Positions 13,572 through 32,542 of a stretch of DNA of 64,000 nt are shown here, piece after piece. The first letter of the stretch is position 1. The number at the start of each line of letters is the position of its first letter. The stretch is from a virus: the IMG/VR virus record IMGVR_UViG_3300025012_000031, positions 64,001 through 128,000 of that record; one strand, written 5' to 3'. The notes under the pieces are model-generated. The model made no database searches. It saw only the letters and a program-made list of their open reading frames with translations, and had not been told where the DNA came from. Position numbers and translations under genes: made by a program.

Positions 13572-13583
13572 AGTATTTTCCTA

Positions 13584-14366: not shown

Positions 14367-14650
14367 AAATCATACTTTCTTCTACCGTTCTGTGGATGAA
14401 CAGTAGGGTCTGGTTTAATAGCTGACAGCGGTATAGTCTTCTTCCGTTCTTCGACATCAAAAACATCGCCGAATTTTCCACCAGCGGCTTTGGCCAACTC
14501 AATTACTTTTGCTTTTGCTGAACTACGAGAATTCGCCTCAATAGTACCATGTTGCTTTACCTTTTCGCCGTCAACATACCAATAGCTAAAAGTCTTTTCA
14601 GCTTTGCCTTCAGCAAGAACTGTTATAACCTTATCGAAGTTATTCAGCAC
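14363..14650 (-). CDS. MNNFD-family protein (GTG start)
   Basis: (M)LNNFDKVITVLAEG. Confidence 0.5.
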   Translation of the reverse strand: MLNNFDKVITVLAEGKAEKTFSYWYVDGEKVKQHGTIEANSRSSAKAKVIELAKAAGGKFGDVFDVEERKKTIPLSAIKPDPTVHPQNGRRKYDL

Positions 14651-14927
14651 GCTCGATCTCCTCAAGGAAAGCGTCATAAGCAGCAATAGCAGTCTTCAGT
14701 TTCCCGACGGTTCTAACGCTATAGTTCTCGTCTGTGATTTTTGCCCAACCCATGAGCGGCTTTGACTTCAGTAGGTGACCGATGCCATACATGAAGTCGG
14801 TTGCCGTAGCGCTATCATCAAACTCTTTCACCTTTGCGACTTTCTCAATGTTCCATTCTTCGTTGATCGGTGCGGGTTTAGTTCCTTCGGACTCCTTTAT
14901 CAATTCATCATGTCTTTTCATATTCAT
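14640..14927 (-). CDS. Hypothetical protein with CTS-like N-terminus
   Basis: MNMKRHDELIKE; AGGAG RBS. Confidence 0.5.
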   Translation of the reverse strand: MNMKRHDELIKESEGTKPAPINEEWNIEKVAKVKEFDDSATATDFMYGIGHLLKSKPLMGWAKITDENYSVRTVGKLKTAIAAYDAFLEEIERAE

Positions 14928-14934
14928 ATTCTCC

Positions 14935-16401
14935 TTAAGCGTAACGGTGGACGAGGTCTTGCCAACGAGCAACACCAGATTTTCTGATGCCGAGAGCGCC
15001 GAGGAATGTTCTCATATTGATCTGTTTATTATTGCCGCTTCCCTCTTTTTTGAGAAACTCAAGGACCTCAAGTTTCATCGCATGCTCAACATCTGGTTCG
15101 ATGTGGTCGAGAAGAGTCTCAATACGCTTGAAAATATCCTTGGCCGACAATGTAATGTCAATGGTGAAAGAACGGGAGAGGAGCGCCGGCTCCATCTTCG
15201 ACTGCGGAAGGTTCGAAATGAAGATAACCTGGCCGGAGAAGTCCACATAATTCGGGAGCTTTCCTTTCTTCGCCAAATCCAATTTTTCGTCCTCATCGAC
15301 ACCGTCAGGATCGTATGTATTCGCGTTGATCCAGGAGATACGGCGAATGGCCTTCGTGTCAAGAGCGGCCTTCAGAATGTTTCTTGCATCTGCATCCTTA
15401 AAGACGGAGTCACAGTCGTCGAATAGGATTAACTTGTTCGGACTCTTGACGAACCTAGCATACATACCGTATGCCGTAACGGAACCCGAGATGCTGAACC
15501 AATCCTCGTTTTCAACAAGACCGCTTTCTTTGATAACTTGTTCGATAACATATGTCTTACCGACACCCGCCATACCAGTGACGACCAGCGAGTTACGAAA
15601 CTTGCCAGTGACGAGCGTGGTGAGGTCTTCGAGGTCCTTGAATACAATATCTGGGTCGGCGGTTGGGGTTGCATCGAGTCTCTTCTGAGCAATATCGCCG
15701 ATATGAGAAACCTCGGGCTTACCGTGCTCACCGATAACCACAACGCCCCACTTTGCAAGGCTGATAGAATTATCAGTGGTGCGGTCAATAAGACCCTTCA
15801 GCGCCGGGTCTTTCGTTTTCATGTGCCGCCAACGGTTCGGAAGACCTTGCTTATAAACAGACTTGGTCGCAACTTTACCATTCACCGTCAATGTATATTC
15901 ACCGCTGCCGTCGGGGGCAAGGTCGATGTAACCGGTGTCTGGAAGTTCTGCTGCCGTTTCTTCAATAGGATCAACGAGATGCATCTTCAAAGATTCCTTT
16001 AGTTTGACGGGCCCGACCTTCGGGTCCTTAATTAGTTCAACAATCGCCCCAAGAACCTGGACAATGTTCTTATCTTTGAGGTCAACATGGATCGTCGGTT
16101 TGTCCCATTTTGCATTGACGTCCCAGATGTCAACGGAGTCAATTTGGTCCGACGTATTACCACGAAGCCAGTTGATTCTAAACTGCTTCTTTGCATCGTC
16201 CCCGACAAAATAACGGAGACCGTACTTCCTCTTTCCTTCGACAGAGAACTCATCAACAACACCGAATTGGTAAAGTGTTTTGTGAAGCTGCTTTTCGAGA
16301 ACTCTCTTAATGAGTTTAACGGCTCTCTCAAGTTTATCTCCAGAAAATTGGGCTTCGTTGATAATTTGCAAATAATTACTAAAGGAAAGAACTTGTCTCA
16401 T
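14935..16401 (-). CDS. AAA+ ATPase domain protein, late-expressed
   Basis: Walker A GMAGVGKT, Walker B ILFDDCD, IFISN sensor, ALLSR arginine finger; TATAAATA 16433-16440. Confidence 0.85.
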   Translation of the reverse strand: MRQVLSFSNYLQIINEAQFSGDKLERAVKLIKRVLEKQLHKTLYQFGVVDEFSVEGKRKYGLRYFVGDDAKKQFRINWLRGNTSDQIDSVDIWDVNAKWDKPTIHVDLKDKNIVQVLGAIVELIKDPKVGPVKLKESLKMHLVDPIEETAAELPDTGYIDLAPDGSGEYTLTVNGKVATKSVYKQGLPNRWRHMKTKDPALKGLIDRTTDNSISLAKWGVVVIGEHGKPEVSHIGDIAQKRLDATPTADPDIVFKDLEDLTTLVTGKFRNSLVVTGMAGVGKTYVIEQVIKESGLVENEDWFSISGSVTAYGMYARFVKSPNKLILFDDCDSVFKDADARNILKAALDTKAIRRISWINANTYDPDGVDEDEKLDLAKKGKLPNYVDFSGQVIFISNLPQSKMEPALLSRSFTIDITLSAKDIFKRIETLLDHIEPDVEHAMKLEVLEFLKKEGSGNNKQINMRTFLGALGIRKSGVARWQDLVHRYA

Positions 16402-16507
16402 ATATGACCTCTCTGGTGCAGGAATTTTTAATTATTTATATTTCCTGATTCCAGAGATTTTTTAAAGTAAAATAATTAAATATCAGGTTTCTTGATCGAA
16501 GTCAAAC

Positions 16508-16556
16508 ACTAAAAGGCCCAACAGTTCAATCAAGAATCCGTTGGGCCTTTTAGTTT
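16508..16556. terminator. Bidirectional terminator
   Basis: actaaaaggcccaac...gttgggccttttagt inverted repeat. Confidence 0.7.
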
Positions 16557-16559
16557 AGT

Positions 16560-16949
16560 TTAAGCAACCGGAATGAAAGTTGCCATGTCGGAATAATTGC
16601 CTTTATACTTGACGGTGTAGAACTCTCCATCGAGCATTACGAGTTCACCGTCGGTCAGCTCCTGAGCGTTGGCCCACTTGAGTGCTTCCCGCTCATAATA
16701 ACTTTTATCAGAACAGATACAAGCGGAGCATTGATTGATCCATGCAACTTCTGTTTTCCTTGGAACCGACTTGTCAATTTCGATTGACTGCTCAATCTTT
16801 GCCTTAATTTCAGCAGCAACCTCAGAAGGCGTTTTATCACCGCGGGTAAATTTGTTTGTATAGTCAGCAGCAAAGAAACCCTTGATAGTAGCAACCGAAC
16901 CTTTTTTCCCATTGAGGATTACGTTTTCGTTGTGCTTAAGGAATTTCAT
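16560..16949 (-). CDS. Early hypothetical protein
   Basis: Follows TTGACA-17-TATTGT promoter and AGGAG RBS. Confidence 0.6.
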   Translation of the reverse strand: MKFLKHNENVILNGKKGSVATIKGFFAADYTNKFTRGDKTPSEVAAEIKAKIEQSIEIDKSVPRKTEVAWINQCSACICSDKSYYEREALKWANAQELTDGELVMLDGEFYTVKYKGNYSDMATFIPVA

Positions 16950-17781
16950 TTTTCATCTCCTGTTGGTTGTTTGATTGTTTGTTGGATAAACAATAACAAA
17001 GAAGATGATTGGTGTCAATAGAAAAAATGCACTTTTTTCATATAGATGAATTTTTATTCTCCGTCGTCCTTTTCACCGAGTTGGATGTCATAGACGATCG
17101 TTAGAACATATGGGCGCTTTGGCTGGAGTGGATCAATGACGAGGTTGGTTGACTTGATGTCGACAACAGACCCCTTCTTTGCTCGACGCTCTAACCATCG
17201 CTTGATGTTCTTCTGCATACCGTTGAGATCGGTGCATCGGAAGAATCGTATGGTCGTCATGGTGGTTTCTTACTCAGCTGGTCGCTTGAACTTCTCAATG
17301 AGAGCATCTGCTTCCGCCTCATCTGCTACCGGAAGGCACATGTTGTGGCCGACTACGTACTGCTGTTCTTTGATCGTGATCTTTCGCATCGGCCCGGATG
17401 TATCGACCTCGACGCCGTCTTGCATCTTGACTGTCATGGCTACCTCCTTATCTACAACGAACGGGTTGGGGTATATACCCGGTGCCCGCAACTGATCCAA
17501 ATACTTGAACAATGGAGATGCCGATTCCCTCCTGGTCAGTTTCGCCGCGAATTGTTGCAATCGCAAACAAAAATCCGTTAAGACACTGGGTCTCAATAGC
17601 ACCGGTTGTACGATCGGGGATATAAATTTTCTTCTCTTCAGCACGTGCATATCCTGATGCCAGGACTAATGCAACCATAACTGCGAACATAACATTTGTT
17701 TTCACTAGTGGCCTCCATTAGTTAAGAGTTCTTACCTTGCGGATATAGAATATCAAACTTTTGTGTGGATGTCAATAAAAA

Positions 17782-18282
17782 TTATGCTGCCCGCTTAATT
17801 TTTTTAACAGCAGCAGAATGATACACACAACTCTTATGAAGCCATTTTGATATCTCAAGCATATTTTCGAGATCGTCAACTAGGAAAATGTTGTTATTAT
17901 TTGCTATTTCTTGCAGTTTGCTTTTAACAAGTTTCCTGGAGCGATTTGATTCGACAATCTGGGCCACACTTGCACTCGGATCGTTACACAGATCATCAAT
18001 CATAAAAATGAAATAGCGATGCTTGTTTGCTCGTAAAGCCGAGGCAATAGAAAATCCAATCTCCGCCAACGAACCTTGTCCAGTCGTCTCAGACGTGACG
18101 GGAAATAGAATTATATCATCTTCTATCAGATGTTTGTTTTCATCTGCAACCATGCCCGGGGACCACGTACCTTCAGCGACCTGTGGGTTAAAGAAATCAA
18201 TACCATTTTTCTCATATTCATTTATAAACGGTTCGCGCCACTTGCTTGAACCACATGTACCAAAAAGACCAATCGTTATCAT
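17782..18282 (-). CDS. Nucleoside 2-deoxyribosyltransferase-like (Nuc_deoxyri_tr2-type) protein
   Basis: GLFGTCG.S.WR...FFNPQV..W...E....DIILF...SLAEIG. Confidence 0.6.
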   Translation of the reverse strand: MITIGLFGTCGSSKWREPFINEYEKNGIDFFNPQVAEGTWSPGMVADENKHLIEDDIILFPVTSETTGQGSLAEIGFSIASALRANKHRYFIFMIDDLCNDPSASVAQIVESNRSRKLVKSKLQEIANNNNIFLVDDLENMLEISKWLHKSCVYHSAAVKKIKRAA

Positions 18283-18544
18283 TTAGTTTCTCCTTTAATC
18301 ATTCTTCAACGATTACATCAGGATTTAAGCGAAATTGTTCCACATCTTCGGCAACTAAAAGATCATCTGCAATTGCACTGTGTGTTACTTTCCTCCCATC
18401 AAATCTTCTATAGCGTTTACGAGCCGGTTCAATTACTACTAAGGGTGTTGACATAAGTTCTCCTTGTTAATTGTTTAATTAGATACTATGAAGGGTCTGT
18501 TAGTTTAATGATAAACAATTAACAGACCCTTCATAAATGGTTGA

Positions 18545-18615
18545 CGATGAAGTCCAGAATCGAACTGGAACCTGCTGCCGTCAGGGCAGCCGTGCGTCCA
18601 TACACTACATTCATC
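18545..18615 (-). pseudogene. Aberrant tRNA (loop CC TGA CG, bulged acceptor)
   Basis: D-arm GTG/CAC; GCTGC/GCAGC stem; T-arm TCCAG TTCGATT CTGGA. Confidence 0.5.
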
Positions 18616-18693
18616 TAATAGACAAGCTGCCCGCGAAGCAGAACACCCAAACAGACTATAATGTCACTCCCTGGGTTAGGAGTCTCGAGATGT

Positions 18694-19968
18694 TTAAACC
18701 GCGAAGTTATTTACACCATCTCCGTGGTCAATTGAAAAAATTCTAAAGAAGTCACTATCACCGATATCAGTACCAGTATCTTGTGGATGACGGGTCATGA
18801 AGTAACGCGAAATCAACATAAAGTGTTCCTGGAATGTATCTGGATCAACCGCTGTTGCAATAAGATTAGAATAAGGCGAATAAATCAAACCACAATCGCC
18901 CGTGCAATCTTTCTCCCCCATATATCCAATTAGCACATAATGATCTGTGCTATAAAAATCGCACATTAGTGGCAACGTACCAACTTTACCGACATAATAG
19001 GGATTCTCTTCGTCTGGCTTTGTTTTTGTGTGGAGTGGGTTTGTGAGTAGCAGAGCGCATGTTGACGAATCGGCTAAAACAAACATCTTTCTTGGCTTGC
19101 GGATTGCTCTTACGATTTGTTCCGCAGCATTGTAAATGTTGGTATAGATATCACTAGCAACGGCCATGATGTCGCCCTGAATACCATATGAATTGAGTAG
19201 AACAACATCATTCATTGGTGTGGCAATATCACGAAGATAAGCAATCGTCTCAATATCAATTTCTTGCTTGATTTCGGTTGAAAGTGTTTTGCCTGCTAGT
19301 TCGGTTCCCTCTACACCAAAGTAAGCCATATAATCTTGAAGCTTTTCTTTAGTGAATTTACTTTTGATTTTGCGGGACTTAACTTCTTTCAAGATTGTGC
19401 GAACTTCAAATTCAACATTCTTAACGAGTGAATTGTCGTCAAGGAACGGACCAGAATAATTCTTAAACACCTTCTTGATCGATGTTCTGTTAACAGATGA
19501 ATAGGTAACAGTACGAACATCCGGGACTTCTACTGTTCCGATGTCGGTTGTGTTGGTGACCAAAATTTTCGGAACGGCATTATCAACGATATCGATTCTT
19601 ACAAGAAGGAATGTACCTTCTTTAAAGATGACCTCGGCAACAGCACCAGCCGCTGAAAATGTCAATGAATCGCCAACGGCAATACCAGTCGTATCATCGA
19701 GAGCAATGATTCTACTCGTCTCAAGATGAATACCATCTGATAAAGATTTATCACCGGTGTAAATTGAGTACAGCGCCGCAATTTTTGCAGACGGAGACTT
19801 TGTTGGCTGCACATCAGCGATCTGGGTGATGAGCATTTCATTATAAAGATGATTGAGGAGCGGATAGATAAGTGGTTCCCAAGGAGCCATCGCAGTAGAA
19901 CCGCTTGATTCTTTGAGAGAATTATCTTTAAGAGTCTCAACTATTAATTTGTGATTCTGATTTTCCAT
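18694..19968 (-). CDS. T4 gp23/gp24-family capsid protein paralog (possible vertex protein)
   Basis: IADVQPT.SPS..I.AL, KSRKIK..FT.E..QD, EI..EID.E.I, GLIYSPY...DPDTFQ....SRY. Confidence 0.8.
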   Translation of the reverse strand: MENQNHKLIVETLKDNSLKESSGSTAMAPWEPLIYPLLNHLYNEMLITQIADVQPTKSPSAKIAALYSIYTGDKSLSDGIHLETSRIIALDDTTGIAVGDSLTFSAAGAVAEVIFKEGTFLLVRIDIVDNAVPKILVTNTTDIGTVEVPDVRTVTYSSVNRTSIKKVFKNYSGPFLDDNSLVKNVEFEVRTILKEVKSRKIKSKFTKEKLQDYMAYFGVEGTELAGKTLSTEIKQEIDIETIAYLRDIATPMNDVVLLNSYGIQGDIMAVASDIYTNIYNAAEQIVRAIRKPRKMFVLADSSTCALLLTNPLHTKTKPDEENPYYVGKVGTLPLMCDFYSTDHYVLIGYMGEKDCTGDCGLIYSPYSNLIATAVDPDTFQEHFMLISRYFMTRHPQDTGTDIGDSDFFRIFSIDHGDGVNNFAV

Positions 19969-20489
19969 GAATGTACCCCTTGTTGAAGTTTAAATTTATT
20001 TATCAACAAGGGAACTTCAGTATATGTGTTTTACTTTTTAAAATTCTTTCGTCATAAAGATTTCAATTATCATCGCATCAATCGCGCCGCGACTAACAAT
20101 ATTGAGTGAAAACGAATCACCATGACACGTGACAGCGCCACCATCGCCGAAAGATACGAATCCTGCGCTCAGTGGTTTATAGTGCGGAAATTTTTTCGTG
20201 AATGTTTCTGCAATGTCAGAGTGCTGTAATATCGAAGGAAAAAGAATCGGCACCTCGGCGTCAATCTTTGAATCAAACACAATATACTTCGTCTTAAGCA
20301 TCAGTGACAATCCTTTCTAAAGCATGTCTTTCAATTTTGCCTTGTTTTCATTTTTAACCTTTTGCATGCACTCCGCACACCCGTTTTCAAACACGGTTAT
20401 CTTCTTATCAGGGCTCATACATCGGCACTGACTAATGATTTTACCACAGGAACACTTATTTGTATAATGTTCGCCCAAGATGATTCTCC

Positions 20490-21422
20490 TTAATCCATGT
20501 CGTCAAGCAAATCGCTGCAACCGTAGAGTTTATTATCGAAGATGTATTCTGTCACTGCTGGGTAAAGTCTTTCATCAAAGAATCCTTGGTGAAATCCCCC
20601 CTTAAATCCAGCCCGGATTTCTGTTGAGGACAGTTCCATAATGTTTTCGCCGGCAAGAAAGACATGAGGCGCGGAAAGATACCAAGGGTTACGTGATACA
20701 TCAACCGTCTCCCCTTTTCTTGGGGCCACAACGAAACGAACTCGTTTCTCCAATTCTTCCCACTGAAACCAATCTTCAGCATGGTTCGCATTATCCATAC
20801 CCATGATGAATGCGAACCGATATGTATCTTTATACAGCGGGTCTTCATTCAGTGTATTCATGAAGTGAAGCGTTGTCCCACCGAACTTATTGGCTATTTC
20901 ATAATCGAACACTTTGATTCGTGGATCATCAATGGCGAGTTCACACATCCGAAGACGATGTTCAGCATTTTCCATCTTTTTACCGTACACAGATTTGTAG
21001 CAGGGGCACAACCAAACTTCATCAAATTCCTTGGCGGCCTTAAGAACTGTTTTTGCCACTTGAATATGGCCAAGATGAATCGGGTCAAAAGCACCACCCA
21101 TTAATGCGACGTTGATTTTCCTCCCCATTGATTTGTATTGGACGCGACGATTCTTTATCTTTTCCCAGTTCTCTTGAAGCAGAACTTCAACAGAGACACC
21201 CAACTCTTCAGCTGCAACAAAACACGAGGCAATGATATCACCCAGTTCTTCCCTGAAGTTTTTGATGTCGGTGAAGCGACTAAGTTCAATCGCTTCACCG
21301 AGGATATCATTGACTCTGGTTTTTATTGATGATCGGCCGAATGCTTCTTTGAAAACCTCAGCAGTGTGAGCTGATAAATGATCAACATTCTTCATTGATT
21401 TCTTGTCCTTGATTTTTATCAT
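20490..21422 (-). CDS. nadD: MazG-like domain fused to nicotinate-nucleotide adenylyltransferase
   Basis: GE..EL...EELGD (MazG-like); GGAFDPIHLGH, MGMDN...W, SST.IR (NadD). Confidence 0.85.
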   Translation of the reverse strand: MIKIKDKKSMKNVDHLSAHTAEVFKEAFGRSSIKTRVNDILGEAIELSRFTDIKNFREELGDIIASCFVAAEELGVSVEVLLQENWEKIKNRRVQYKSMGRKINVALMGGAFDPIHLGHIQVAKTVLKAAKEFDEVWLCPCYKSVYGKKMENAEHRLRMCELAIDDPRIKVFDYEIANKFGGTTLHFMNTLNEDPLYKDTYRFAFIMGMDNANHAEDWFQWEELEKRVRFVVAPRKGETVDVSRNPWYLSAPHVFLAGENIMELSSTEIRAGFKGGFHQGFFDERLYPAVTEYIFDNKLYGCSDLLDDMD

Positions 21423-21811
21423 GTCCGGCCAACTGATCTTCTAATTTTGCAATCAAGAAGGCCACGAGTTCTAGTCGGCGCCGGCCGTATTCACCCGACC
21501 ACATATCGTTGGCGCCCATTGTCGGTCGAGGAACAGGATACGAAACACTGCCACTATGTTTACCCCACCCGCATGCATAAATTCCAACGAATGGATATGC
21601 ATATTTACCGCTGATGTCGGAAAGATTAGAGCAAATCCCTGTAAATTTGTGCACTATCCTACCATCACGAATCTCTTTCAAACCGTCCAGGAAATTTTGC
21701 TTCTGATCATCTGTGAAAATCATAAATACTCCGATTTGGTTAGTTAGATCATTTCAAAATGAAAATGCGGCTGAACACAATGAAAAATGTTCAGCCGCAT
21801 TTTCATTTGGA

Positions 21812-22102
21812 TTAAACGCCGGTAGAAACCTGGGGGTTGAGAAGATTGGCCAAGGAGAGTTTCATGTTACGACCCTCGGCGATGGTGTTGGCGAGGTCGA
21901 AGTTTTCGCCTTCGATTTTTGCGGCGAATTTCTCGAATTCAATCCGGGCGGCGGCGAGAGCTTTGTTGTTTTCTTCGATCAGCGTCTCGGTTTCTTTGAT
22001 GCCGAGGTCAAGTTCACGGAGCTTGAGTTTGAAGTCGGCGAGGACATCAGCGATACGAGCTTTACCGGTTTTCTGTTTGACCAAAAAGGATGTAAATTTC
22101 AT
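21812..22102 (-). CDS. Coiled-coil hypothetical protein
   Basis: Heptad-rich sequence; followed by a long hairpin terminator at about 21757-21808. Confidence 0.5.
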   Translation of the reverse strand: MKFTSFLVKQKTGKARIADVLADFKLKLRELDLGIKETETLIEENNKALAAARIEFEKFAAKIEGENFDLANTIAEGRNMKLSLANLLNPQVSTGV

Positions 22103-22166
22103 GATTTGTTGCCTTTCGTTTGTTGGTTGATTGGATTATGTAACCCCTTATTAGGTTACATTAAAG

Positions 22167-22239
22167 TGGATGAGTGAGTTAGAATCAAACTAACGACCTC
22201 CGCCCGAATGGCGGTACTCTATCACTGAGCTATCACCCA
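22167..22239 (-). ncRNA. tRNA-like RNA with 5-nt anticodon loop
   Basis: Intact acceptor, D and T arms and CCA; CCGCC-ATTCG-GGCGG. Confidence 0.65.
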
Positions 22240-22247
22240 ATAAAATT

Positions 22248-22320
22248 TGGTGCGGTGGACAGGAGTCGAACCTGCATCTTCCGCTCTTATGCGGCTGATC
22301 TACCAATTTATCTACACCGC
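22248..22320 (-). ncRNA. tRNA-like RNA with 6-nt anticodon loop
   Basis: GCCGC-ATAAGA-GCGGA; canonical T-arm; ACCA. Confidence 0.65.
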
Positions 22321-22399
22321 GAGACGATGCCGCCGACGTACTTCCATAAAGGGGCGGACCTCGATAGAAATATCATCCATCGTCTTTTTCAAAAACTTT

Positions 22400-22520
22400 G
22401 CGTGTCATAAAGGATTCGAGCCTTTGTTTCTCCATGCGGAATTACGGCAACCGTTAAATGTGGGAATCGAACCCAGCGCCAACCCAGGTGGATTGTCCTT
22501 TCCTATAGACGAATGACACG
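22400..22520 (-). ncRNA. tRNA-like RNA with about 54-nt insert in anticodon loop containing a second T-arm
   Basis: CGTGTCA/TGACACG acceptor; TCCA/TGGA stem; insert has TGGG TTCGATT CCCA. Confidence 0.6.
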
Positions 22521-22831
22521 TTATAAACAAACTTCTAGTAGAGCGAGTTTAAATCGGAAGGGCGTCGGCCGTTCGCGAATCAAACTCAAACCCCACCTTA
22601 AGATCAATTCCGTATTGTGAAAGCCATTATAATTCATCCTTATGAAGATGTAAATGGTTAATTTACATTGGAAGCAATTTAAATTTCTTGATTTCCAAAT
22701 TTACACCGTAAGAACCTGCTGCTTTCACTGCGGCACCGGGACTCTTGTCCCATACTCTTCGGTTAGTGCCGCTTTGGAACCAAGATTTACATTTATGATC
22801 CCAGATCTTATAAACGAACTCTTCATTCATT

Positions 22832-23239
22832 TTAATAAGTCCTCCCAATTGTTAAATGGAATTTCCAATCACTCGGTCGCCCTGCTTCATCTCGCATCAT
22901 CTTGAGAAACGGTGCATCAACTTCAACGAACCAGTAATGATCCGGGCGATCCCAACCTGTAGTATCTCCGCTACGACGCACATCATGCTTATATCGAAAG
23001 TCAACGATTTCTCCATCATACTTTTTCCAGAACTCACCAACATTCTCTCCGCGGAAAATCGAAACATGCGCATCCCAAGAAGGCTGGTACAAATCAATAC
23101 CCATCATCCGTTTAACCCACCAACGATAGTAGCGGGTGATTTCTTTGTCTACATTAAGGACACACCAATGCTCCGTCTTCTTTTTCATTTCTCCACGAAA
23201 TGGATCATAGATGATTTTTCCTGTGCCCGGATGCCACAT
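22832..23239 (-). CDS. 2H phosphoesterase (Acb1/gp57B-like candidate)
   Basis: Two HxS/T motifs: AHVSI and FHLTIG. Confidence 0.7.
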   Translation of the reverse strand: MWHPGTGKIIYDPFRGEMKKKTEHWCVLNVDKEITRYYRWWVKRMMGIDLYQPSWDAHVSIFRGENVGEFWKKYDGEIVDFRYKHDVRRSGDTTGWDRPDHYWFVEVDAPFLKMMRDEAGRPSDWKFHLTIGRTY

Positions 23240-23454
23240 TTTCTAAACTCTCTTTGTTCAATTTGTATCAGAGTATTAAATCAAATTTCATCATTAATGT
23301 CAACAACATTTTTCTTTACAGTGCATTTCTTAGTGACATCATGCTTAATTACAGCATTGCACAATTCCCTAGAATTACATACACCTAGAAGTTCACAATC
23401 AAGACAACAGTCTGTCTTGTTATTTTCACATCTTGAACCATGACACTTCATATG

Positions 23455-24195
23455 TTATTTCTTTTTCGATTGTTTATCATAATCTATTCGAGTATGATAG
23501 ATACCGTCAAGTTCTCTGACGAGTTTCAATTGGACCTGCCGCAAGATACCGACCCGCATTTGGTCAAGTTGTTTGTCATCTCTCAATCGCTCAATGGTCT
23601 CCCTGACAACGTCGGTCCTGGCAATGGGCTCTAACATTCTATCAGCCCGGCCGCATGAAGTTGCCTCTACGGCATCGGTAATCATGAGGATGCTGGAGTA
23701 TTCACAATCGGGTTTGGGGCACTTATAGCGGAATTTGTCAATTGCCTTAGATTCTGTTTTGTTGCAGATGGCCATGAGCGGAGAGTCGCCGTGATGTTTA
23801 GCGATGACTTGGAGAACTTCCCTTGGCATATCTGTTTGTGTTAAAAGAATCATAACACTGTCAGATACGTGCCTTGTTAGTATTTGATAGGAGATGTGTG
23901 GTTCGAGGTTATCGTGGGGATTTTCTTCTTCTTGATTTTCGGTGAAATAATGTGGGTTGATGATTTTACCGATGTCATGATACATTGCACAGACCTTCAT
24001 AAATGTCTGGTCAAGACCAAGGTCAGCGGCAATAGCTTCAGCAAGAGTCGAGACATTCTGACAATGCCTGAATGTACCCGGGGCAGCAGCTTTGAATCTT
24101 CCTAGTAAAGGATAATCAGATTCGAGATATTGCTTTAAATTTTCACTGTTGAATTCATTCATTATTTGTTTCACCTTCGTTTGTTTTTGTATCAA
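23455..24195 (-). CDS. Stand-alone HDIG phosphohydrolase resembling the HD domain of PgpH/7TM-HD c-di-AMP phosphodiesterase
   Basis: APGT..H..NV..LAEA, YHDIGK..P.YF.ENQ...NPHD.L.P..S..I..HV, HHG, FRY..PKP, D.VEA. Confidence 0.85.
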   Translation of the reverse strand: MIQKQTKVKQIMNEFNSENLKQYLESDYPLLGRFKAAAPGTFRHCQNVSTLAEAIAADLGLDQTFMKVCAMYHDIGKIINPHYFTENQEEENPHDNLEPHISYQILTRHVSDSVMILLTQTDMPREVLQVIAKHHGDSPLMAICNKTESKAIDKFRYKCPKPDCEYSSILMITDAVEATSCGRADRMLEPIARTDVVRETIERLRDDKQLDQMRVGILRQVQLKLVRELDGIYHTRIDYDKQSKKK

Positions 24196-24234
24196 CGATG
24201 TACCGTTTTATGCATCTTTGTAATCAAAACCCGG

Positions 24235-24322
24235 CGGCGAGGAAGGGAATCGAACCCTTAAACCGATTCATCATCGGCTGGCTGCTTTCCAAGCAGCTGA
24301 CCTACCGTTAGTCAACCACGCC
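24235..24322 (-). tRNA. tRNA-Ser(GGA)
   Basis: GCTGC-TT GGA AA-GCAGC; long variable arm; G73. Confidence 0.88.
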
Positions 24323-24697
24323 AAATCTTTTTATTATAGTCTTTAGCTATTACTTGATGTATCTGGTCTTGCTTGTGGTCACATCTGATAGTATGGAATG
24401 ATATAACAATCATGCCGCATTCTATGATGGGTTCTGCATCATTTCTTTTATTTTGGTTTTTGCTTTCGTAAGTACGATCATCAACTCATCAAGCTCCCAG
24501 GGACTTAATGAAACCATGCTTGGGTCTTCCTTGTCAAGACCTTGACATATCTGAACCATTAATGCGGACGGACTGTTAACCGGCCTCATTTTTCGCTCTA
24601 TTCGGTTTAGTTCAACCCAGGTCATATCGTCATGACCTATTTTTTCTGTTAGATGATTTGTTATATTTGGATGTGTCATATCTGTTCCTTTCATCAG

Positions 24698-24768
24698 GCT
24701 CATGGGTTGGTTTCGAGGCCAACATCTCCCTTTTATGAAAGGGTATCCTATTGTTAAACGACCATGAG
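24698..24768 (-). pseudogene. Aberrant tRNA-Met-like (6-nt loop TCATAA)
   Basis: CTCATGG/CCATGAG acceptor; CCCTT/AAGGG stem; 8-nt T-loop. Confidence 0.55.
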
Positions 24769-25196
24769 GAGCAAATTATATCATTATTCGGCACTCGTGT
24801 CAATCTTTAATTTCTTTAAATCGGAAATAAGATCGGCCTTTGAATAAGCTTTCCCGACCCAGATCAGATCTGCATAGGTAGCATTTGCTTCGAGCTTTTT
24901 AAGAATTTCATTCAACAGTTCTTCGTTCATAATTTTCTCCACGTGTTGATTGTATAATAAAAGTTGCATCAAGATTATCAATGCAACTTCTAAGAATCAT
25001 TTTATGTATTTACTCTATTGGAACTCTTCCGCTTCCACCGCATACACGACACGTTCCGATGAAGGATTCGAATGGCGGAGTATATTCGTTCTGCTGTGTC
25101 TTACCGGCACCGTTACAATTCGGACAAGTTTTAACTTTGATTTTAATCGTCATTGTTTCGGCCATGATAATCTCCCGGGCTGTATAAATGGTCAAG

Positions 25197-25277
25197 AGGA
25201 AGATGAAGTAATCGAAACCTCGTGTTTTACCACGGCATAGCGTTCGAAGCTAATTTGCCACCTTGGCGCCACCTTCC
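25197..25277 (-). tRNA. tRNA-Ser(CGA)
   Basis: TTAGC-TT CGA AC-GCTAT; variable arm CGTG/CACG. Confidence 0.75.
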
Positions 25278-25522
25278 TTATTTCAATTCTTCAAGAAAAT
25301 CTAAATCAACTTCACCTCTATCTAAGACAAGATCAATGTCATCCCAGTTATGAGTCCATATTAATTTAGGATGCAACCAATCAGCGACACTGATTGTCTT
25401 TTCTTTGTGATTCACCGTGACATGCGGCAATGGCATCCATGTTACATGATCAAGAAAACTTACAAGAATCGCTTTTGGTGTTCTTTGTATAATTTTGTCA
25501 TACGAAACTTTTACTGGCATCT

Positions 25523-25900
25523 TTAATCTTTACGACTGCCCGGCGGATAAACCTTTTTCGGATCAGCCGTCTTCATTTCCATTTTAATGTCTTTGTCTGC
25601 ATCAATGAAAGAAAGTAATTCTTTCTCCGTCTTAAAGTAAACTCGATTGGAGAAGTATGAAATTCCGTATGGCCCGCCCGGAGCATTACTAACGCTCACG
25701 TTGAATTGCTTTTTATCTTTTGTGTAGTAAAGAGCACCACCATGATTCTCGGCTGTACCCCACTTGTCTTTATCTTTATGCGAACCTCTGAAGCCGTACT
25801 TTGTTTTAGTAAGGAGTTTTGTTAACATTTCGCTAAAATCATCAGCGGTGAATTTACCAGCGGATTCTTTTATAAACTCGCTAAATTTTTTGATTGTCAT
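25523..25900 (-). CDS. Late protein with CTS-like N-terminus
   Basis: MTIKKFSEFIKE; TATAAATA at 25947-25954. Confidence 0.6.
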   Translation of the reverse strand: MTIKKFSEFIKESAGKFTADDFSEMLTKLLTKTKYGFRGSHKDKDKWGTAENHGGALYYTKDKKQFNVSVSNAPGGPYGISYFSNRVYFKTEKELLSFIDADKDIKMEMKTADPKKVYPPGSRKD

Positions 25901-25968
25901 CTGTATAACTCCTTATGTGAATACCATCTTTAAAGTGCATATACGGTATTTATAAAGATGACATGTCT

Positions 25969-26053
25969 TGGAGGAAAGTAGAGGAATCAAACCCCGATGC
26001 TATTAACACCCCCTGGTGTTCAAAACCAGTTTGCCGTCTTGGCGGTACCTTCC
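25969..26053 (-). tRNA. tRNA-Ser(TGA)
   Basis: CTGGT-TT TGA AC-ACCAG; long variable arm; CCA. Confidence 0.85.
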
Positions 26054-26910
26054 ATATGTTTTACGAGTTCATGCCCTTCTGCTGACCGATGTCCCATGCA
26101 TAGTGCTGGGTGTATTGGTTCCAGAAGTCATAAGGGTTTTTTGTTATTCCTTGTTTCCCGGCAGTAACACCCTCATCATATTCGGGTGATAGATGTAATG
26201 CCATCGCTGTTCCCTTTGGAACTAGGGCACTTCTTCTACTCATTGTTTATTTCTTTCTTTAACATGCCAACGGATTATTGAAGATGTCCCAAATTTTAAG
26301 AGCATCATCTTTTATCATATTAGATGCATGTCTTTCACATTTGGTACATTTGATTTTCCATTCATAACCGCCAGGCGAATTTTGAAATTTGATGCGAGCT
26401 TCTGATCCACACCCACACCTCAATTGTTTAATTTCCTTTGACCATAGCTTCATTAAATTCTTTCCATTCTTTTGTTAGAAACAAGTCAATATAATAAAGA
26501 CCCGGTTCATAGCTTGCATATGAAACGTAATTAACCTGCTTATAGATTTTCTCTTCGCGGCCAGTTGGTACATAATGTTCGTACTTCATCAACGAACTCA
26601 TATTATTGATTCGCCAACGTTGATCATATGGAACTGACAATTCGCATCTTATCGATGATTCGCCGAATTCAACATAAGGACCGTGTGCGCCAACAACAAG
26701 ACGAACATAATCACCCGTAAGTAATGTTCCGTCTATTAGATGAAATTTTCTATTTTGTGACGGCAACCAATTGACGAAATCATGTAAGAGAATTTGCATT
26801 CTTCGGATACGATCTCGACCTAATGTTTTTGGGATATGCCATCCTCTGTCTTCTAACTGTTGACGATAAGCAGTAATCTCTTTTTCTATTTCATTCATTG
26901 TTAACCCGAG

Positions 26911-26979
26911 TGGCGATAGGCAGAATCGAACTGCCCCCGCGGACTTATGAAATCCATGGTCATAACCATACATACCGCC
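26911..26979 (-). tRNA. tRNA-Met(CAT) (or Ile2), reduced D-arm
   Basis: TGGAT-TT CAT AA-GTCCG; acceptor GGCGGTA/TATCGCC. Confidence 0.7.
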
Positions 26980-27151
26980 AAATTACCAACGACATCCTTT
27001 CGGACATACCGGACGATTTACTTTTGTTCTCCAAACTCGCTCAAAACATTTAGGACAGAATCCAAATGATGTGATGATTAGATTCTTGTAATATTTGAGC
27101 TGCGATTTAAATCTTGGATATTTAAAATTCATTAGTTTACCTTTCTTTGTG

Positions 27152-27225
27152 TGGAGGGAAGTATGGGGTTCGAACCCATGCTCGCCGGGTCACGGCCGAC
27201 GCGACTACCATTATCTTAACGACCC
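27152..27225 (-). tRNA. tRNA-His(GTG)
   Basis: GTCGG-CC GTG AC-CCGGC; CCA. Confidence 0.8.
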
Positions 27226-27626
27226 ATTAATCAAGATTCTTTTAATACTTCAAGATGCTTACGAATATACCGCATGAACAACATCGCCTTTTCTTCAGCG
27301 GGGAATGTTGCCTCACCGCAATCTTCAATCGGTACAGGGAACTCGAAGTTCTTATCAATGACTTCATAGTAAAGATTACCAGCCCGATAGCGAACAAAAC
27401 GAACGACTGTCCCTTTAACTAAATCTTTAATATTCAATTCACTCATCTTTGAAATATCCTTCCGTGTCGCTCATTGCATCGCTATAGCCGCTCCAATTGT
27501 CAACACCATATACTTCAAGACGATCAAGGGTATCAGCACTCTTCAGTAGGCTGTTATATTCTTTCTCAGTGATGGTTACCATTTTTTCTTCTGTTGGTTG
27601 AGACATTGAAGTCTCCTTTCATTACG

Positions 27627-27718
27627 TGGTGGTTCTAGGACGGAATTGAACCTCTTGCCCATACGGGGAATGTTCTACAGACATCCGGCAGCACCAGCTA
27701 CCCTTACTTGCAAGAACC
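27627..27718 (-). tRNA. tRNA-Tyr(GTA) with expanded connector
   Basis: GATGT-CT GTA GA-ACATT; variable arm; ACCA. Confidence 0.7.
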
Positions 27719-27899
27719 ATAAGTTATATTACTTCCAACCGTAAAGATCTTTTCCCTGGTACATCCAACGGTGTACCTTCTTTTCGTCGTGTAGTCGACG
27801 TGATCTTTCCTGTGCAGCTCCGAAGTGATGATAGAAAATTCGTTCTTCGTCAAACTCAATTATTGATATCTCCGGCATCATTCTTTCCTTTACTTAATA

Positions 27900-28044
27900 T
27901 GGTGGCCCGCGTTGGAATCGAACCAACATTCCCGGAGACAGTGTCCTCAGAGTCGCGACTAAGAGTTATGATATACCGACATACGTTTCGACATACCACA
28001 AGAAACACCATCCACATGGTCTTAACCGATTAGATGAGCAGGCC
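27900..28044 (-). ncRNA. 145-nt tRNA-like RNA with anticodon arm replaced by a long hairpin
   Basis: GGCCTGC/GCGGGCC-ACCA, D-loop AATCGGTTA, GTTGG TTCGATT CCAAC; insert GGATGGTGTT/GACACTGTCT. Confidence 0.7.
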
Positions 28045-28057
28045 GTGCTTTAATTTT

Positions 28058-28143
28058 TGGTGTACGTAACAGGAGTCGAACCTGTTCAGCATTAAGCAAC
28101 TGGGTTACAGCCAGTCCCGGCTCTCCAACTCCGGCGTACGCAC
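28058..28143 (-). tRNA. tRNA-Tyr(GTA)
   Basis: ACTGG-CT GTA AC-CCAGT; ACCA. Confidence 0.88.
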
Positions 28144-28285
28144 ATATAATTTTTATCCGTTGGTCGTTGGTCCATAACAAATCGGACAAATGACAGTCTT
28201 GTTATGATGACCGACTTTAAGCCGAAATGAACCGTGTACTTTACAAATTCGTTTGACTTCTATCTTCATTATTCATTCTCCTAAT

Positions 28286-28361
28286 TGGTCGAGTCTCGGG
28301 GTTTCGATCCCCGCTCTACTGCTTTTCAGACAGTTGCTTTCACCAGATTAGCTTAGACCCG
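28286..28361 (-). tRNA. tRNA-Phe(GAA)
   Basis: ACTGT-CT GAA AA-GCAGT; ACCA. Confidence 0.88.
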
Positions 28362-28697
28362 ATTGTGTTGTGCTTTATCCAACTATTGATTTGAATGCCC
28401 ATGCAAATGTTAAAACACCCACGAGAATAATGATAAATTGAACTGCTCTATATTGATGTTTCATTACTTCTTATCCGTTGCATCGAGTTTTCTCTTTTGA
28501 TATTTCCCGCAACATTTACATGTGCGATCCTCATATACAGATGTACGAATAATCGTTTCCCACCCAAAATGAAGTGGTACTGTTGTAGAAAACTTTGACC
28601 ACTTCTCCCAGTCATGGAAGAGGCGCCCTTCAAGACAACGGGCAAAGACTTTAAATATTCCTCTGAGTTTCATTCGTTTATTCCTTTTCTTTATGAG

Positions 28698-28770
28698 CGA
28701 GAATGACGGGATTCGAACCCGCGCTACAGGAGTGACAATCCTGCGTGCTAACCGCTAACACTACATCCCC
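28698..28770 (-). tRNA. tRNA-Asp(GTC)
   Basis: CAGGA-TT GTC AC-TCCTG; G73. Confidence 0.92.
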
Positions 28771-28942
28771 GTGTAAATTTTAATCTGCCTCTTTAAGAAA
28801 GACCACAACTATTTCTGCGGCCAATCCTGTAGCAAATGATCCCGATTCTTCATGACGAATCTCAAACGGTGATTCGCATTCGATGATCCAACCATGTCTT
28901 GCTAAAAGTTCTTCGGTCATTTGTTTACCTCATTTGAAAAAT

Positions 28943-29019
28943 TGGTCTATGTGGAGAGATTTGAACTCCCGTCCTCCTGCGTCCAAGGCAGGCCGTCTAC
29001 CAGGCTGACTTACACATAG
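28943..29019 (-). tRNA. tRNA-Pro(TGG)
   Basis: CCTGC-CT TGG AC-GCAGG; ACCA. Confidence 0.9.
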
Positions 29020-29033
29020 ATGATGAACATTAG

Positions 29034-29106
29034 CGAGCGCGACGGGATTCGAACCCGCAACAGTCTGATAGACAGTCAGACATCATTACCATTTGAAACC
29101 GTGCCC
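29034..29106 (-). tRNA. tRNA-Asp(GTC)
   Basis: TCTGA-CT GTC TA-TCAGA; G73. Confidence 0.85.
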
Positions 29107-29140
29107 GTACTTTTTTCTTCCGTTCAATCAATGGTGAAGT

Positions 29141-29169
29141 ATTATACAAAATCTTCCTCACTTTGTCAA
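29141..29169 (-). promoter_or_regulatory. sigma70 promoter inside tRNA array 2
   Basis: TTGACA-17-TATAAT. Confidence 0.85.
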
Positions 29170-29209
29170 ACAAAATCTTCACAGTACATCATTTTTATTT
29201 CAAAGAACT

Positions 29210-29284
29210 TGGTCGGGATGACAGGATTCGAACCTGCATGGCCTCCGCCCCAAACGGAGTGACTGACCGTTAGCCTACATCCCG
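29210..29284 (-). tRNA. tRNA-Pro(TGG)
   Basis: CTCCG-TT TGG GG-CGGAG; C1:G72, ACCA. Confidence 0.92.
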
Positions 29285-29297
29285 ATATTTTAAAACT

Positions 29298-29331
29298 AAA
29301 AAAGGAGCCTACCGATAAGATAGGCTCCCTT
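29298..29331 (-). terminator. Intrinsic terminator (attenuator 2)
   Basis: AAGGGAGCCTATC-TTATC-GGTAGGCTCCTTTTTT. Confidence 0.85.
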
Positions 29332-29360
29332 GAAATGGGGAAGGACTCTATACTTAAAGG

Positions 29361-29453
29361 TTAATCGGTGCTTACACCATAATCCACAGGCGACATCGGA
29401 TAATCAGAGTCGCTAAAAGCAAAATCAAAATGTGGGGATGAATGTGTAAACAT
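29361..29453 (-). CDS. Leader peptide 2 (30 aa) MFTHSSPHFDFAFSDSDYPMSPVDYGVSTD
   Basis: AGAGG RBS, downstream of TATAAATA (29488-29495) and upstream of antiterminator/terminator. Confidence 0.75.
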   Translation of the reverse strand: MFTHSSPHFDFAFSDSDYPMSPVDYGVSTD

Positions 29454-29647
29454 GATAAGACCTCTTGTAGTTTTTGTCCGTTTAAGTTATTTATAAAAGC
29501 ACTCTGGTTTTTAGCCAATTTCGTTGTAGGCAATGCCCTGTTCATCGAGGAAATCTTCGATAGCTTGCTTCTGTTCATCGTTCTCATCATCCAATTCGAT
29601 CTCGTAAATTACAATTCCCATATAGTATGTCCTCCTTTCGTTTATTT

Positions 29648-30100
29648 TTATTCCTGTAAAAGTCTGCGGTGAAGAATCTTGAATTCTTCGTCTTTGTTTA
29701 ATCCTTCGAGTGCCGCCAACACTCTTTCTTCTAAACCATAACCACTTCTTGTATAAAATATGACAGCGGCTAAGGTGTTAACTTCTTTACTATTCTTGAT
29801 GATGTTGGTGGTGATATTCTTTATCGTTTCACCACTACAACAGAAATCATCGATGATGATGTACCGCCCCCGGAGTCGACCAACATCACCCCCCGAATGA
29901 CTTGATTTTTTGTCTTCATCTTTACGAATGACATAGATGTTTTTATCCAAGAGGTGTGCCAAAACAAATCCTAATGCCATACCAGAAACACCCCGACACA
30001 CAATAGTGTCAAATTTAATTCCGCTGAGTAATTTCTCACAATCTATAATAGTCTTCTTCCGTTGACTTGGATCAATTGCCTCTTTGAAATAACTTGCCAT
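29648..30100 (-). CDS. Type I phosphoribosyltransferase
   Basis: RG.SG..LG..LA; VIRK; IIIDDFCCSGET PRPP-binding motif. Confidence 0.8.
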   Translation of the reverse strand: MASYFKEAIDPSQRKKTIIDCEKLLSGIKFDTIVCRGVSGMALGFVLAHLLDKNIYVIRKDEDKKSSHSGGDVGRLRGRYIIIDDFCCSGETIKNITTNIIKNSKEVNTLAAVIFYTRSGYGLEERVLAALEGLNKDEEFKILHRRLLQE

Positions 30101-30651
30101 GGTTTGTCTCCTCGGTGTTTTTATTCAATGAGGAGATTTTAATACAAAGCGATGATCAAGTCAATATTAAAATTCATCGCCTTACATTTTTATATTCTTC
30201 CTTTATAACGAACCTTACATCTTTTACATGTAGCCGACTGGGTTGATTCACGCCCAACATAAGCAAGTTCGCTTAACCGCCAGGACCAACGATGCCATCC
30301 GATGAAACAAAGAAATTTTCCCATTCATTCTCCTCTTGATTTCTGAAGTATTGCATATGCTTTGTTCCGAAGGTCCGCCTTAATAGCGTTGATCCTTTTT
30401 CTTTCGGCGCGTTCAGCGATAAGAATTTGCTTTTCATCACCTATCCCATCAACAATCTTTTCACAACGTAGACATATCTTAGTGGTGTAAACAAAACGAG
30501 ACTTGCCACTACCCCTACAGAGTTTCACCCAGTTTCCAGTCTCGTCATGTATGATGTCTTCCAGTATTTTAAAACCGTGTCTCTGTTTAACAACAACGTA
30601 TTTATGAATTCCGAATTTACACCAATTCATGATTATCTCCTTCAAGAAAGT

Positions 30652-31731
30652 TTATGCGTCAGAATCCTTTATCAGATAGCGATTAGATATCGCCTTGAAG
30701 CTTAATATCTTACCATAATAATTATTGAATGATTTATGAAAACCGCGGATAACGATACCCTCCCGCTCGTTTGTCGTTCCTTCATATTTCGATTCGGCCA
30801 ATTTAAGAAGGTCATCCATACTATATTCGAATGAATCACCGATTTTAAACAGCGGTACGCGCTTCAAATTGAGGGCATTACAGACAACACCCATATCGTG
30901 GTAATCGTAATACCGCTTCTGGGTTTTATCAAAGACATTGAAGACAAACATATCGATGGCTTTCAACCCAAGACGATTTTTCTGTATGCCCGGGCCGCAG
31001 ATTTCCCCCTGGATGACAAGATGACTAAATTCTTTATCTAACATGATTTCATCAAGACGATATTTTTTAGCAATATTCCAATAAACATTACCGCCTTCTT
31101 TAATCATCAAATTCCTGGAACAAGCAAAGAACCCATCTTCATCAATACCATAGGTTCCTGACGTACCATCACACTTGACGGTAATCTCATACGGCTTCCC
31201 GGTGATTCGTTCAATAAGACTTGGGTCAGATTGAACTCGTGTCTCGTCGGTCCTTGGGAGAATATGATCGGGGAATGATCCCTTGGCGTCACCGTTCTCA
31301 AATGTGATCGGTGGTTCATACTTATTTATCCCGAGAGCATCGGTGAAGTCAATTCCTTCCATGAGGTTGAGATACTCGCATGTGCCATCATTCTCGGACC
31401 TGGCCATACAGAAATGTCCGTTGTCATTCTCCATCAACCATCCATTGTCTTCAAGGATTTCTCGCACAACCGGAAATGGGATGACATAACCCTGGGAGAT
31501 CTGCCCGCGGAGTTTCATTGTGCGGATGCGACCCTTACAATTTTCAAGCTCAGGAAACCGATCAAGTGGAAGTACAGAGTCAATCTCGCAATAGATGACT
31601 AGATCACCTTCCCGATGATATCCCTTTCCAACAACACAATCCCAACCAAGAACCTTTGCAACCTCTATACGATCGGCGTTAGGAATTGGGCGTAAACTTT
31701 CAATCCTTTGAAGCGAGGCTAACTTTCTCAT
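30652..31731 (-). CDS. RNA ligase, DRB0094 (Rnl5) family
   Basis: MRKLAS..I.PIP.AD.IE, LRGQISQG, P.TDE.R.Q, KCDGTS, QGE.CGPGIQKN, EGIV.R, FKAISN.YL. Confidence 0.92.
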   Translation of the reverse strand: MRKLASLQRIESLRPIPNADRIEVAKVLGWDCVVGKGYHREGDLVIYCEIDSVLPLDRFPELENCKGRIRTMKLRGQISQGYVIPFPVVREILEDNGWLMENDNGHFCMARSENDGTCEYLNLMEGIDFTDALGINKYEPPITFENGDAKGSFPDHILPRTDETRVQSDPSLIERITGKPYEITVKCDGTSGTYGIDEDGFFACSRNLMIKEGGNVYWNIAKKYRLDEIMLDKEFSHLVIQGEICGPGIQKNRLGLKAIDMFVFNVFDKTQKRYYDYHDMGVVCNALNLKRVPLFKIGDSFEYSMDDLLKLAESKYEGTTNEREGIVIRGFHKSFNNYYGKILSFKAISNRYLIKDSDA

Positions 31732-32542
31732 TCGTTTCTCCTTTTCTGTATTCAAACAAGTCATCATGTTTGCCCTGTAATGAAAACAGCGCATCATCTC
31801 GTTGTTCTATCGTTTTATAACTTTTCCACTTTTTCCATTCACCCCATGATTTAAACACCGGGCGAGTCATCTTCCACTCGATTGTGAATGGTTTCTTTAT
31901 CTTTGCCCGACTTTTACGGTGTTTTGGAATCTCTTCATCATTCATCACGGTACCTCACTCAAACGGATATTCTTGCCCCTGACTTCCGTCAGGAAAGATT
32001 CGCCAATAACAACTTCGCCAATATGCACCATTATTCCCGCCGTTATCAACCTCGTGATTTGGACACCAAAATTGATATTCTTGGTGTTTATGTCCTCTTG
32101 GTAGACGATCGTAATAGGCACCGCACCCCCTACATCGATGTAATCTAAATTTGAAAGTCGGTATCTTAAACCAACTCTTGAGAAATCCGAACATCATTTC
32201 ACCGGCTCCTTGTTATACTTTTTAAGAAATCCGTATAGTGCACAAGCAAATCTCTCGGGGTGGATGAACCAATTAATTTTGTTGTCTATGGATGAGCAAC
32301 AATCATATAGGATTTCATATTCAAAGTCAACCCACCATTCTTGTTCCTGTGCCCACACCCAAAGTTTCCCGAAGCCGGGCCATGTATCATAATACTTTTT
32401 ATTTGCCAAACTTGGATTAACCGTGCTCGCTCCACATTTTAAACATTTCGTCGGTTCAATGAGGAGCTTATTGGGATAGTACTCGTGCCAACATTCGCCC
32501 ATCATCTCTGTTAGGAATCTGTTAATCCCGTCGAATTCCATG

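Follow-up and report, generated by a model that had tools for sequence, protein, structure and literature searches.

A leader peptide matched to the tRNA genes behind it: a candidate transcription attenuator in a T4-like groundwater phage

The tRNA genes of phages are usually viewed as a static supplement to codon usage or as spares against the tRNA-cleaving defences of the host. The locus described here raises the question of whether such genes could be placed under feedback control. A short open reading frame (leader 2), composed mainly of codons for seven amino acids, stands ahead of an intrinsic terminator, and the terminator is followed by tRNA genes for the same amino acids. An earlier note on this DNA proposed that these elements form a leader-peptide attenuator, the second of two in the genome.

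The window analysed is a stretch of 64,000 nucleotides, positions 64001–128000 of a 155-kb IMG/VR record. All coordinates below are window positions, and the features lie on the minus strand, which carries all genes and about 40 tRNA genes. The phage originates from aquifer groundwater metagenomes and is T4-like, with a gp23-family major capsid protein encoded. Ten further contigs from aquifer groundwater metagenomes cover the region; they are 99.9–100% identical to it, and the leader is unchanged in all of them. Variation within the population includes a 28-nt deletion near 28447 in one variant contig, located where small ORFs separate tRNA-Asp from tRNA-Phe, and clusters of SNPs at 26270–26352 and 28031–28063 in other contigs.

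Outside this population the phage stands apart. No close relative was found among GenBank phages by megablast. IMG/VR, scanned with the PRTase-like, RNA-ligase and gp23 proteins, contained relatives of at most 41% identity without syntenic tRNAs; a JGI metagenome scan gave relatives of at most 43% identity with no tRNAs nearby, and a search of 5.8 billion proteins returned the same population only. The best protein identities to any GenBank or IMG/VR phage are 40–43%.

The elements at the head of the array are as follows.

29488–29495, minus strand: T4-type late promoter motif TATAAATA, recognized by copy number, strand and position
29461–29466, minus strand: Shine-Dalgarno sequence AAGAGG, 7 nt before the ATG, read from the sequence
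29361–29453, minus strand: leader ORF 2, 30 codons and TAA (ATG at 29453, TAA at 29363–29361)
29341–29356, minus strand: putative 5' arm of an antiterminator, beginning 4 nt after the stop codon, with its partner at 29331–29316
29296–29331, minus strand: intrinsic terminator with a 13-bp stem (29331–29301), a 5-nt loop and a T6 tail, -20.2 kcal/mol
29210–29284, minus strand: tRNA-Pro(UGG), the first of the array, found by ARAGORN and by Rfam (48 bits), starting 14 nt after the T tract
29141–29169, minus strand: sigma-70-type promoter TTGACA-17-TATAAT, a 12/12 consensus match, directly after the first tRNA-Pro

The promoter, Shine-Dalgarno sequence, ORF and terminator listed in the earlier note are all present on this strand, at the positions given there. 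In this phage, TATAAATA clearly behaves as a promoter motif: it occurs in 13 copies in the window versus 3.2 +/- 2.0 in shuffled sequences, all on the minus (coding) strand and none on the other, each 20–70 nt upstream of a Shine-Dalgarno sequence and an ATG. It agrees with the textbook late promoter of T4. The copy ahead of leader 2 lies 35 nt upstream of its ATG, and the ORF is equipped with this promoter and a well-spaced Shine-Dalgarno sequence in the same way as 12 other late genes.

The peptide encoded by leader 2 was claimed to mirror the tRNA set behind the terminator and to be complementary to leader 1, and both parts of this claim hold under calibrated nulls. The counts given for it are correct: 24 of the 30 residues (23 of 29 without the start residue) belong to the set P, D, F, Y, H, M and S, and Q, R, I, L, N, C, E, K and W are absent altogether. 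The six residues outside the set are T, A, V and G. Phage anticodons could read 21 of the 23 in-set codons; the other two are AGC codons, for which there is no phage tRNA.

The strength of this match depends on the null against which it is measured. An iid binomial calculation gives 7e-8. This figure overstates the match, because pairings with decoy arrays, taken from other contigs, produce values of 1e-6 at a rate of about 7e-4 per ORF, the small decoy values stemming from low-complexity ORFs; it was discarded as a measure. In an exact test, in which the peptide was held fixed and random sets of seven amino acids were drawn, the value is 3.0e-4. Among the 1424 small ORFs of the 155-kb record, leader 2 ranks first with an in-set fraction of 0.76 versus a mean of 0.31 (sd 0.09), five standard deviations out, the next ORF reaching 0.62. 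In 155 long ORFs, windows of 29 residues have at most 17 residues in the set. When leader 2 was compared with decoys consisting of 177 array heads from 63 viral contigs, none of the 177 arrays matched as well; on the binomial scale the best decoy (2e-4) and leader 2 (7e-8) are at least three orders apart. An unbiased scan of the ORFs that precede tRNAs also places leader 2 first, and none of the 512 candidate ORFs in a random sample scores as high. Under these calibrated nulls, the match between leader 2 and its tRNA set is genuine.

A second cassette of the same layout lies further along the strand.

12485–12778, minus strand: leader 1 cassette, comprising TATAAATA (12778–12771), a 35-codon ORF (12696–12589), a terminator (12562–12537) and a TTGACA-17-TAAAAT promoter (12513–12485)

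Here the next tRNAs cover 12 amino acids, to which 29 of 34 residues belong (exact p 1.1e-3, with 0 of 177 decoys as good), and this set is complementary to that of leader 2. Both leaders carry TCC CCA CA at codons 6–8, as the earlier note had observed. A common origin of the two cassettes by duplication was considered and rejected: in an alignment, the promoter and the T tract alone are shared. From the decoy rates and the 15 well-formed candidates in the record, the chance that one genome has both of these leaders is put at about 2e-4. The significance implied in the earlier note was overstated, the realistic per-ORF chance being about 3e-4 and not 1e-8.

The match does not extend to phage tRNA arrays at large. 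In a prevalence sample of 119 random IMG/VR loci with 68 viral tRNA arrays, true pairings are barely above decoys: 3 versus 0.75 at 1e-3 and 0 versus 0.25 at 3e-4. The architecture is therefore not general, as there is no clear excess over decoys in the 68 arrays. No matched leader ORF was found in T5 and KVP40, which were scanned as well, and a search for single-tRNA mini-leaders of the Ser and Glu units of the phage gave none.

The array behind the terminator includes the following features.

26911–29106, minus strand: tRNA genes for Asp, Pro, Asp, Phe and Tyr, a tRNA-like gene, and tRNA genes for His and Met(CAT), with interspersed small ORFs (ARAGORN, Rfam)
26911–26979, minus strand: tRNA-Met(CAT), the last of these (Rfam 31.7 bits)
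25969–26053 (TGA) and 25196–25277 (CGA), minus strand: two low-scoring tRNA-Ser genes, reported by ARAGORN at a relaxed threshold only and absent from the Rfam output
24961–24989, minus strand: weak terminator-like hairpin, next on the coding strand, -11 kcal/mol
24775–24803, minus strand: second perfect sigma-70 promoter, after this hairpin
24233–24322, minus strand: tRNA-Ser(GGA), downstream of the two low-scoring Ser genes
22167–22239, minus strand: tRNA-Glu, further down the same strand

The tRNA list of the earlier note is thus essentially right: ARAGORN and Rfam give Pro (two genes), Asp (two genes), Phe, Tyr, His and Met(CAT), to which Ser(GGA) and, at the relaxed threshold of ARAGORN, Ser(TGA) and Ser(CGA) are added. 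The extent of the unit depends on the hairpin at 24989–24961. A functional hairpin would limit the unit to exactly Pro, Asp, Phe, Tyr, His, Met and Ser; without termination there, tRNA-Glu, for which leader 2 has no codon, would belong to it as well. Ser(GGA) is followed in turn by a tRNA whose anticodon loop has 6 nt, by Glu, by the capsid gene and by Ser(TGA).

Two features of the array bear on its transcription, and they point in different directions. The first tRNA-Pro is intact and lacks its own promoter, for which there is no room between the terminator and the promoter that comes next. Its transcripts must therefore cross the terminator, and this placement favours intended read-through. 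The perfect promoter directly behind it makes the rest of the array independent of any switch at the terminator, and further sigma-70 promoters are present downstream at 24803 and 22654. Because of these promoters, the switch cannot be the sole control of the array. Neither the perfect promoter at 29169–29141 nor the tRNA-Glu gene was mentioned in the earlier note.

The element that would connect the leader to the terminator is a pairing between 29356–29341 and 29331–29316. It exists as drawn in the earlier note, 4 nt after the stop codon, and a terminating ribosome would cover this segment; its calculated energy is a mere -5.9 kcal/mol as drawn, -10.0 kcal/mol as an MFE variant and -12.5 kcal/mol if extended, versus -20.2 kcal/mol for the terminator. 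Compared with shuffles the z value is -1.3 to -1.6 (16 of 200 as good at z -1.57), and a separate shuffle test gave p 0.10; with an overall p of 0.08–0.10, the antiterminator is not significantly better than shuffled sequence. Of the 13 nt in the terminator 5' arm, the alternative hairpin takes up 11, the highest fraction among the 22 terminators of the record. For leader 1 the alternative hairpin does no better than chance (p 0.6), and the fold of the RNA has a z value of +0.7. The statement that both leaders have the same RNA architecture could not be upheld: the likeness rests on layout and not on demonstrable structure, because the shuffle tests fail to support the pairing.

Ahead of the terminator, the RNA of leader 2 has more structure than its shuffles (z -2.4, 3 of 200). 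In the predicted fold of 29332–29480 (minus strand), the Shine-Dalgarno sequence and the start region are paired with the 3' end of the ORF and the post-stop segment. Such a fold could restrict translation to the first ribosome, and the pairing of the Shine-Dalgarno sequence with the post-stop segment could, by analogy, act like the 1:2 pairing in trp. Neither a leader family of Rfam (His, Leu, Thr, Trp, Phe) nor the T-box (RF00230) was detected by cmscan in 12000–30000 at E<=1, where tRNAs and noise alone were returned.

A comparable layout occurs in other phages. A pattern search with the 25-nt 3' end of tRNA-Pro mostly returned unrelated tRNA-Pro genes and att sites; one match led to an unrelated complete phage of 181 kb (IMGVR_UViG_3300045988_172743). 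In this phage, a 36-aa ORF with a Shine-Dalgarno sequence, in which 25 of 35 residues belong to the nine amino acids of the array, stands ahead of a 12-tRNA array and is followed by two near-identical hairpins, the second of which is the terminator. These twin hairpins permit 2:3 pairing. A repeat, GATCTT(T)CGTATAT...GGA, precedes both the leader ORF (3241, minus strand, in the stretch examined) and the terminator hairpin, and may be a promoter of this phage.

In the Caulobacter phage phiCbK, 31 of the 44 residues of a leader ORF belong to the set of the downstream Pro-Pro-Lys-Lys-Leu-Leu-Leu-Ala-Ser-Ser block. Behind the ORF stands a hairpin; its GGAGCCGC and the GCGGCTCC in the 5' arm of the terminator can form a clean 8-bp helix. 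Homologous 39-aa ORFs occupy the position of the phiCbK leader in CcrColossus (29 of 38 residues in the set) and CcrSC (33 of 38). These leaders of 39–45 aa, all ahead of Pro-headed arrays, are 37–38% identical across three genera, and Trp is used solely where the block has a tRNA-Trp. The architecture is thus conserved in at least one lineage, since the leader ORF is kept across three genera of Caulobacter phages. In a cross-matrix of leaders and arrays, 4 of 4 leaders fit their own array best. The phiCbK leader (3541–3675 in the stretch examined) also has six Thr and three His codons, though its block is without tRNAs for Thr and His; the CcrSC block has both. The phiCbK leader may preserve a record of an ancestral array.

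The best explanation of the locus, to which a probability of about 0.6 is assigned, is that leader 2, matched in its codons to the tRNA genes, controls whether transcription reads through into them, as a leader-peptide transcription attenuator. This reading rests on the sequence elements, the calibrated composition match, the read-through needed for the first tRNA-Pro and the recurrence of the layout. We infer that leader 2 is translated, that the antiterminator forms and that the device responds to a shortage of tRNA. Transcripts bearing the ORF would start at the late promoter or come from the upstream operon. The ORF would then serve as a translated sensor of tRNA supply, using codons of the downstream Pro, Asp, Phe, Tyr, His, Met and Ser tRNAs. 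When decoding is fast, the ribosome at the stop codon would cover the post-stop segment, the terminator would fold, and transcription would stop before the first tRNA-Pro. Slow decoding of any codon of the set, which could be caused by depletion of host tRNA, tRNA cleavage or a late mismatch of codon usage, would stall the ribosome upstream and leave the post-stop segment free. The freed segment would pair with the 5' arm of the terminator, and RNA polymerase would continue into the tRNA genes.

The promoter behind the terminator could be accommodated in this scheme. During early infection, the array except the first tRNA-Pro would be transcribed from the consensus sigma-70 promoter, and the attenuator would provide a late, demand-driven top-up. 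The most economical model would thus combine early constitutive expression by sigma-70 with late conditional expression via the attenuator. A wider proposal concerns both cassettes. Two complementary "roster" leaders would gauge the speed of translation at codons of the phage's own tRNAs, and the depletion or cleavage of host tRNAs would open the matching tRNA blocks to late transcription, forming a demand-driven supply circuit that possibly counters host anticodon nucleases. This proposal is tentative, with odds slightly below even; the RNA ligase gene about 1.2 kb upstream is consistent with it.

The main competitor of the attenuator reading is ordinary transcriptional punctuation, which is considered unlikely. 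The terminator would close the upstream operon and late transcripts and insulate an early promoter, the real driver of the tRNAs; the ORF would be a chance occurrence or an unrelated small late gene, and its match to the array a coincidence. The upstream operon (from the RNA ligase to the PRTase-like gene) may simply end at this terminator. A terminator followed within 20–160 nt by a consensus or near-consensus sigma-70 promoter is found at the heads of three tRNA units (29301/29169, 24961/24803 and 12537/12513), which speaks for punctuation. The antiterminator is within chance, and leader 2 was left uncalled by gene callers on 10 of 10 contigs. The sample of random arrays is without a general signal, and decoys reach very small binomial p values, so that a large scan yields striking matches; a look-elsewhere discount applies, because such a scan selects extremes. 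Coincidence, however, has to be reconciled with the calibrated chance of about 2e-4 for two matched leaders in one genome, and a chance ORF with the late promoter and well-spaced Shine-Dalgarno sequence that 12 other late genes share. An intact tRNA-Pro between the terminator and the promoter would be silent without read-through, and the conservation of the layout over three genera of Caulobacter phages also argues against punctuation.

A second alternative retains the sensor and replaces its output. Leader 2 could be genuinely codon-matched and act on Rho access, RNase processing or the stability of the precursor, or the first tRNA-Pro alone could be regulated. A strong composition match combined with a weak antiterminator would be explained in this way, as would the long-range fold that sequesters the Shine-Dalgarno sequence against the post-stop segment (z -2.4), which lies outside the model of the earlier note. 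Nevertheless, the ORF and the first tRNA are separated by precisely the simplest output device, a strong intrinsic terminator, and in phiCbK the terminator arm has a clean 8-bp alternative partner; this second reading is judged improbable. Least probable is that the ORF encodes a functional small acidic, aromatic late peptide, for example a protein-binding tail mimic or an inhibitor, whose composition reflects its function: disordered acidic peptides rich in Ser, Asp, Phe, Tyr and Pro are a common motif type, the late promoter and Shine-Dalgarno sequence are those of other late genes, and the adjoining 36-aa ORF is acidic too, but the exact coincidence of the enriched residue types with the downstream tRNA set (exact p 3e-4) and the complementary set in the second cassette would be left unexplained.

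The proposed attenuator resembles those of enterobacteria (ilvGMEDA, thr; trp, his, phe, leu) in its short ORF with a Shine-Dalgarno sequence, its regulatory codons of several amino acids and its intrinsic terminator. To these may be added a competing hairpin a few nt past the stop codon, putative in the present locus, with which the position of the ribosome would decide on termination. The controlled genes are, however, phage tRNA genes and small ORFs here, and not biosynthetic or synthetase genes. The leader samples six to seven amino acids versus one to three and has no long runs of a single codon; the antiterminator is weak and statistically unsupported; and a T4-type late promoter is combined with a second, constitutive promoter behind the switch. 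With T-box riboswitches the locus would share terminator read-through set by the state of specific tRNAs. T-boxes differ in that they bind uncharged tRNA via a specifier codon and the T-box sequence, involve no translation and control synthetase and amino-acid genes.

The closest parallel is provided by the phiCbK-like Caulobacter phages (Dolichocephalovirinae), in which a mini-ORF built from the amino acids of the block stands at the head of the tRNA block and is followed by hairpins and a terminator. The lineage and the sequence are unrelated to those of the present phage, and phiCbK differs in having the clean 8-bp pairing and an ORF conserved across three genera. Phage T4 shares with the present phage the gp23 capsid, late promoters with TATAAATA and a tRNA region in which small ORFs and homing-endonuclease-like genes are interspersed. 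The eight tRNAs of T4 are described as early or middle transcripts and are not known to have a leader peptide. Within the incomplete coverage of the full-text literature, no description was found of leader-peptide control of phage tRNA genes or of leader ORFs of the phiCbK type, which is an absence of evidence only.

If the attenuator reading is right, the locus is a new variant of leader-peptide attenuation and contributes a T4-like case in which a late promoter is part of a two-promoter design. By sampling the codons of the tRNAs behind it, such a leader peptide would act as a feedback sensor for the capacity to decode them, and attenuation of the trp/his type, known for amino-acid and synthetase genes, would extend to the tRNA genes themselves. 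Compact, programmable switches for "tRNA shortage" would then be conceivable. Since phiCbK and its host can be cultivated, the Caulobacter case is the most feasible for a first experiment.

Several minor observations concern the genes of the region. Among the tRNA genes at 20490–31797 (minus strand) are an RNA ligase (PF09414), a 150-aa PRTase-CE-like protein, an HD-domain protein and a cytidylyltransferase/MazG-like protein; this gene context suggests tRNA repair or nucleotide salvage. tRNA-Pro(UGG) and tRNA-Asp(GUC) are each present twice (28943–29284 and 28697–29106, respectively), with clearly different sequences, and are no recent duplicates. The tRNA-like gene at 27900–28044 (minus strand) combines a good acceptor stem, a T arm and CCA with an insert of about 46 nt in the region around the anticodon; ARAGORN reports it as Lys(CTT) with an intron at a relaxed threshold only. 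The two low-scoring tRNA-Ser-like genes (TGA and CGA) are paralogous, have weak D arms with 2-bp D stems and fit exactly into intergenic gaps. Beside tRNA-Glu, a tRNA at 22248–22320 (minus strand; Rfam 35 bits) has a 6-nt anticodon loop and is given as "???" by ARAGORN, and a candidate intron-containing tRNA lies at 22452–22585. The tRNA-Met(CAT) gene overlaps the first 20 codons of a 181-aa ORF (26428–26973), the true start of which probably lies further down.
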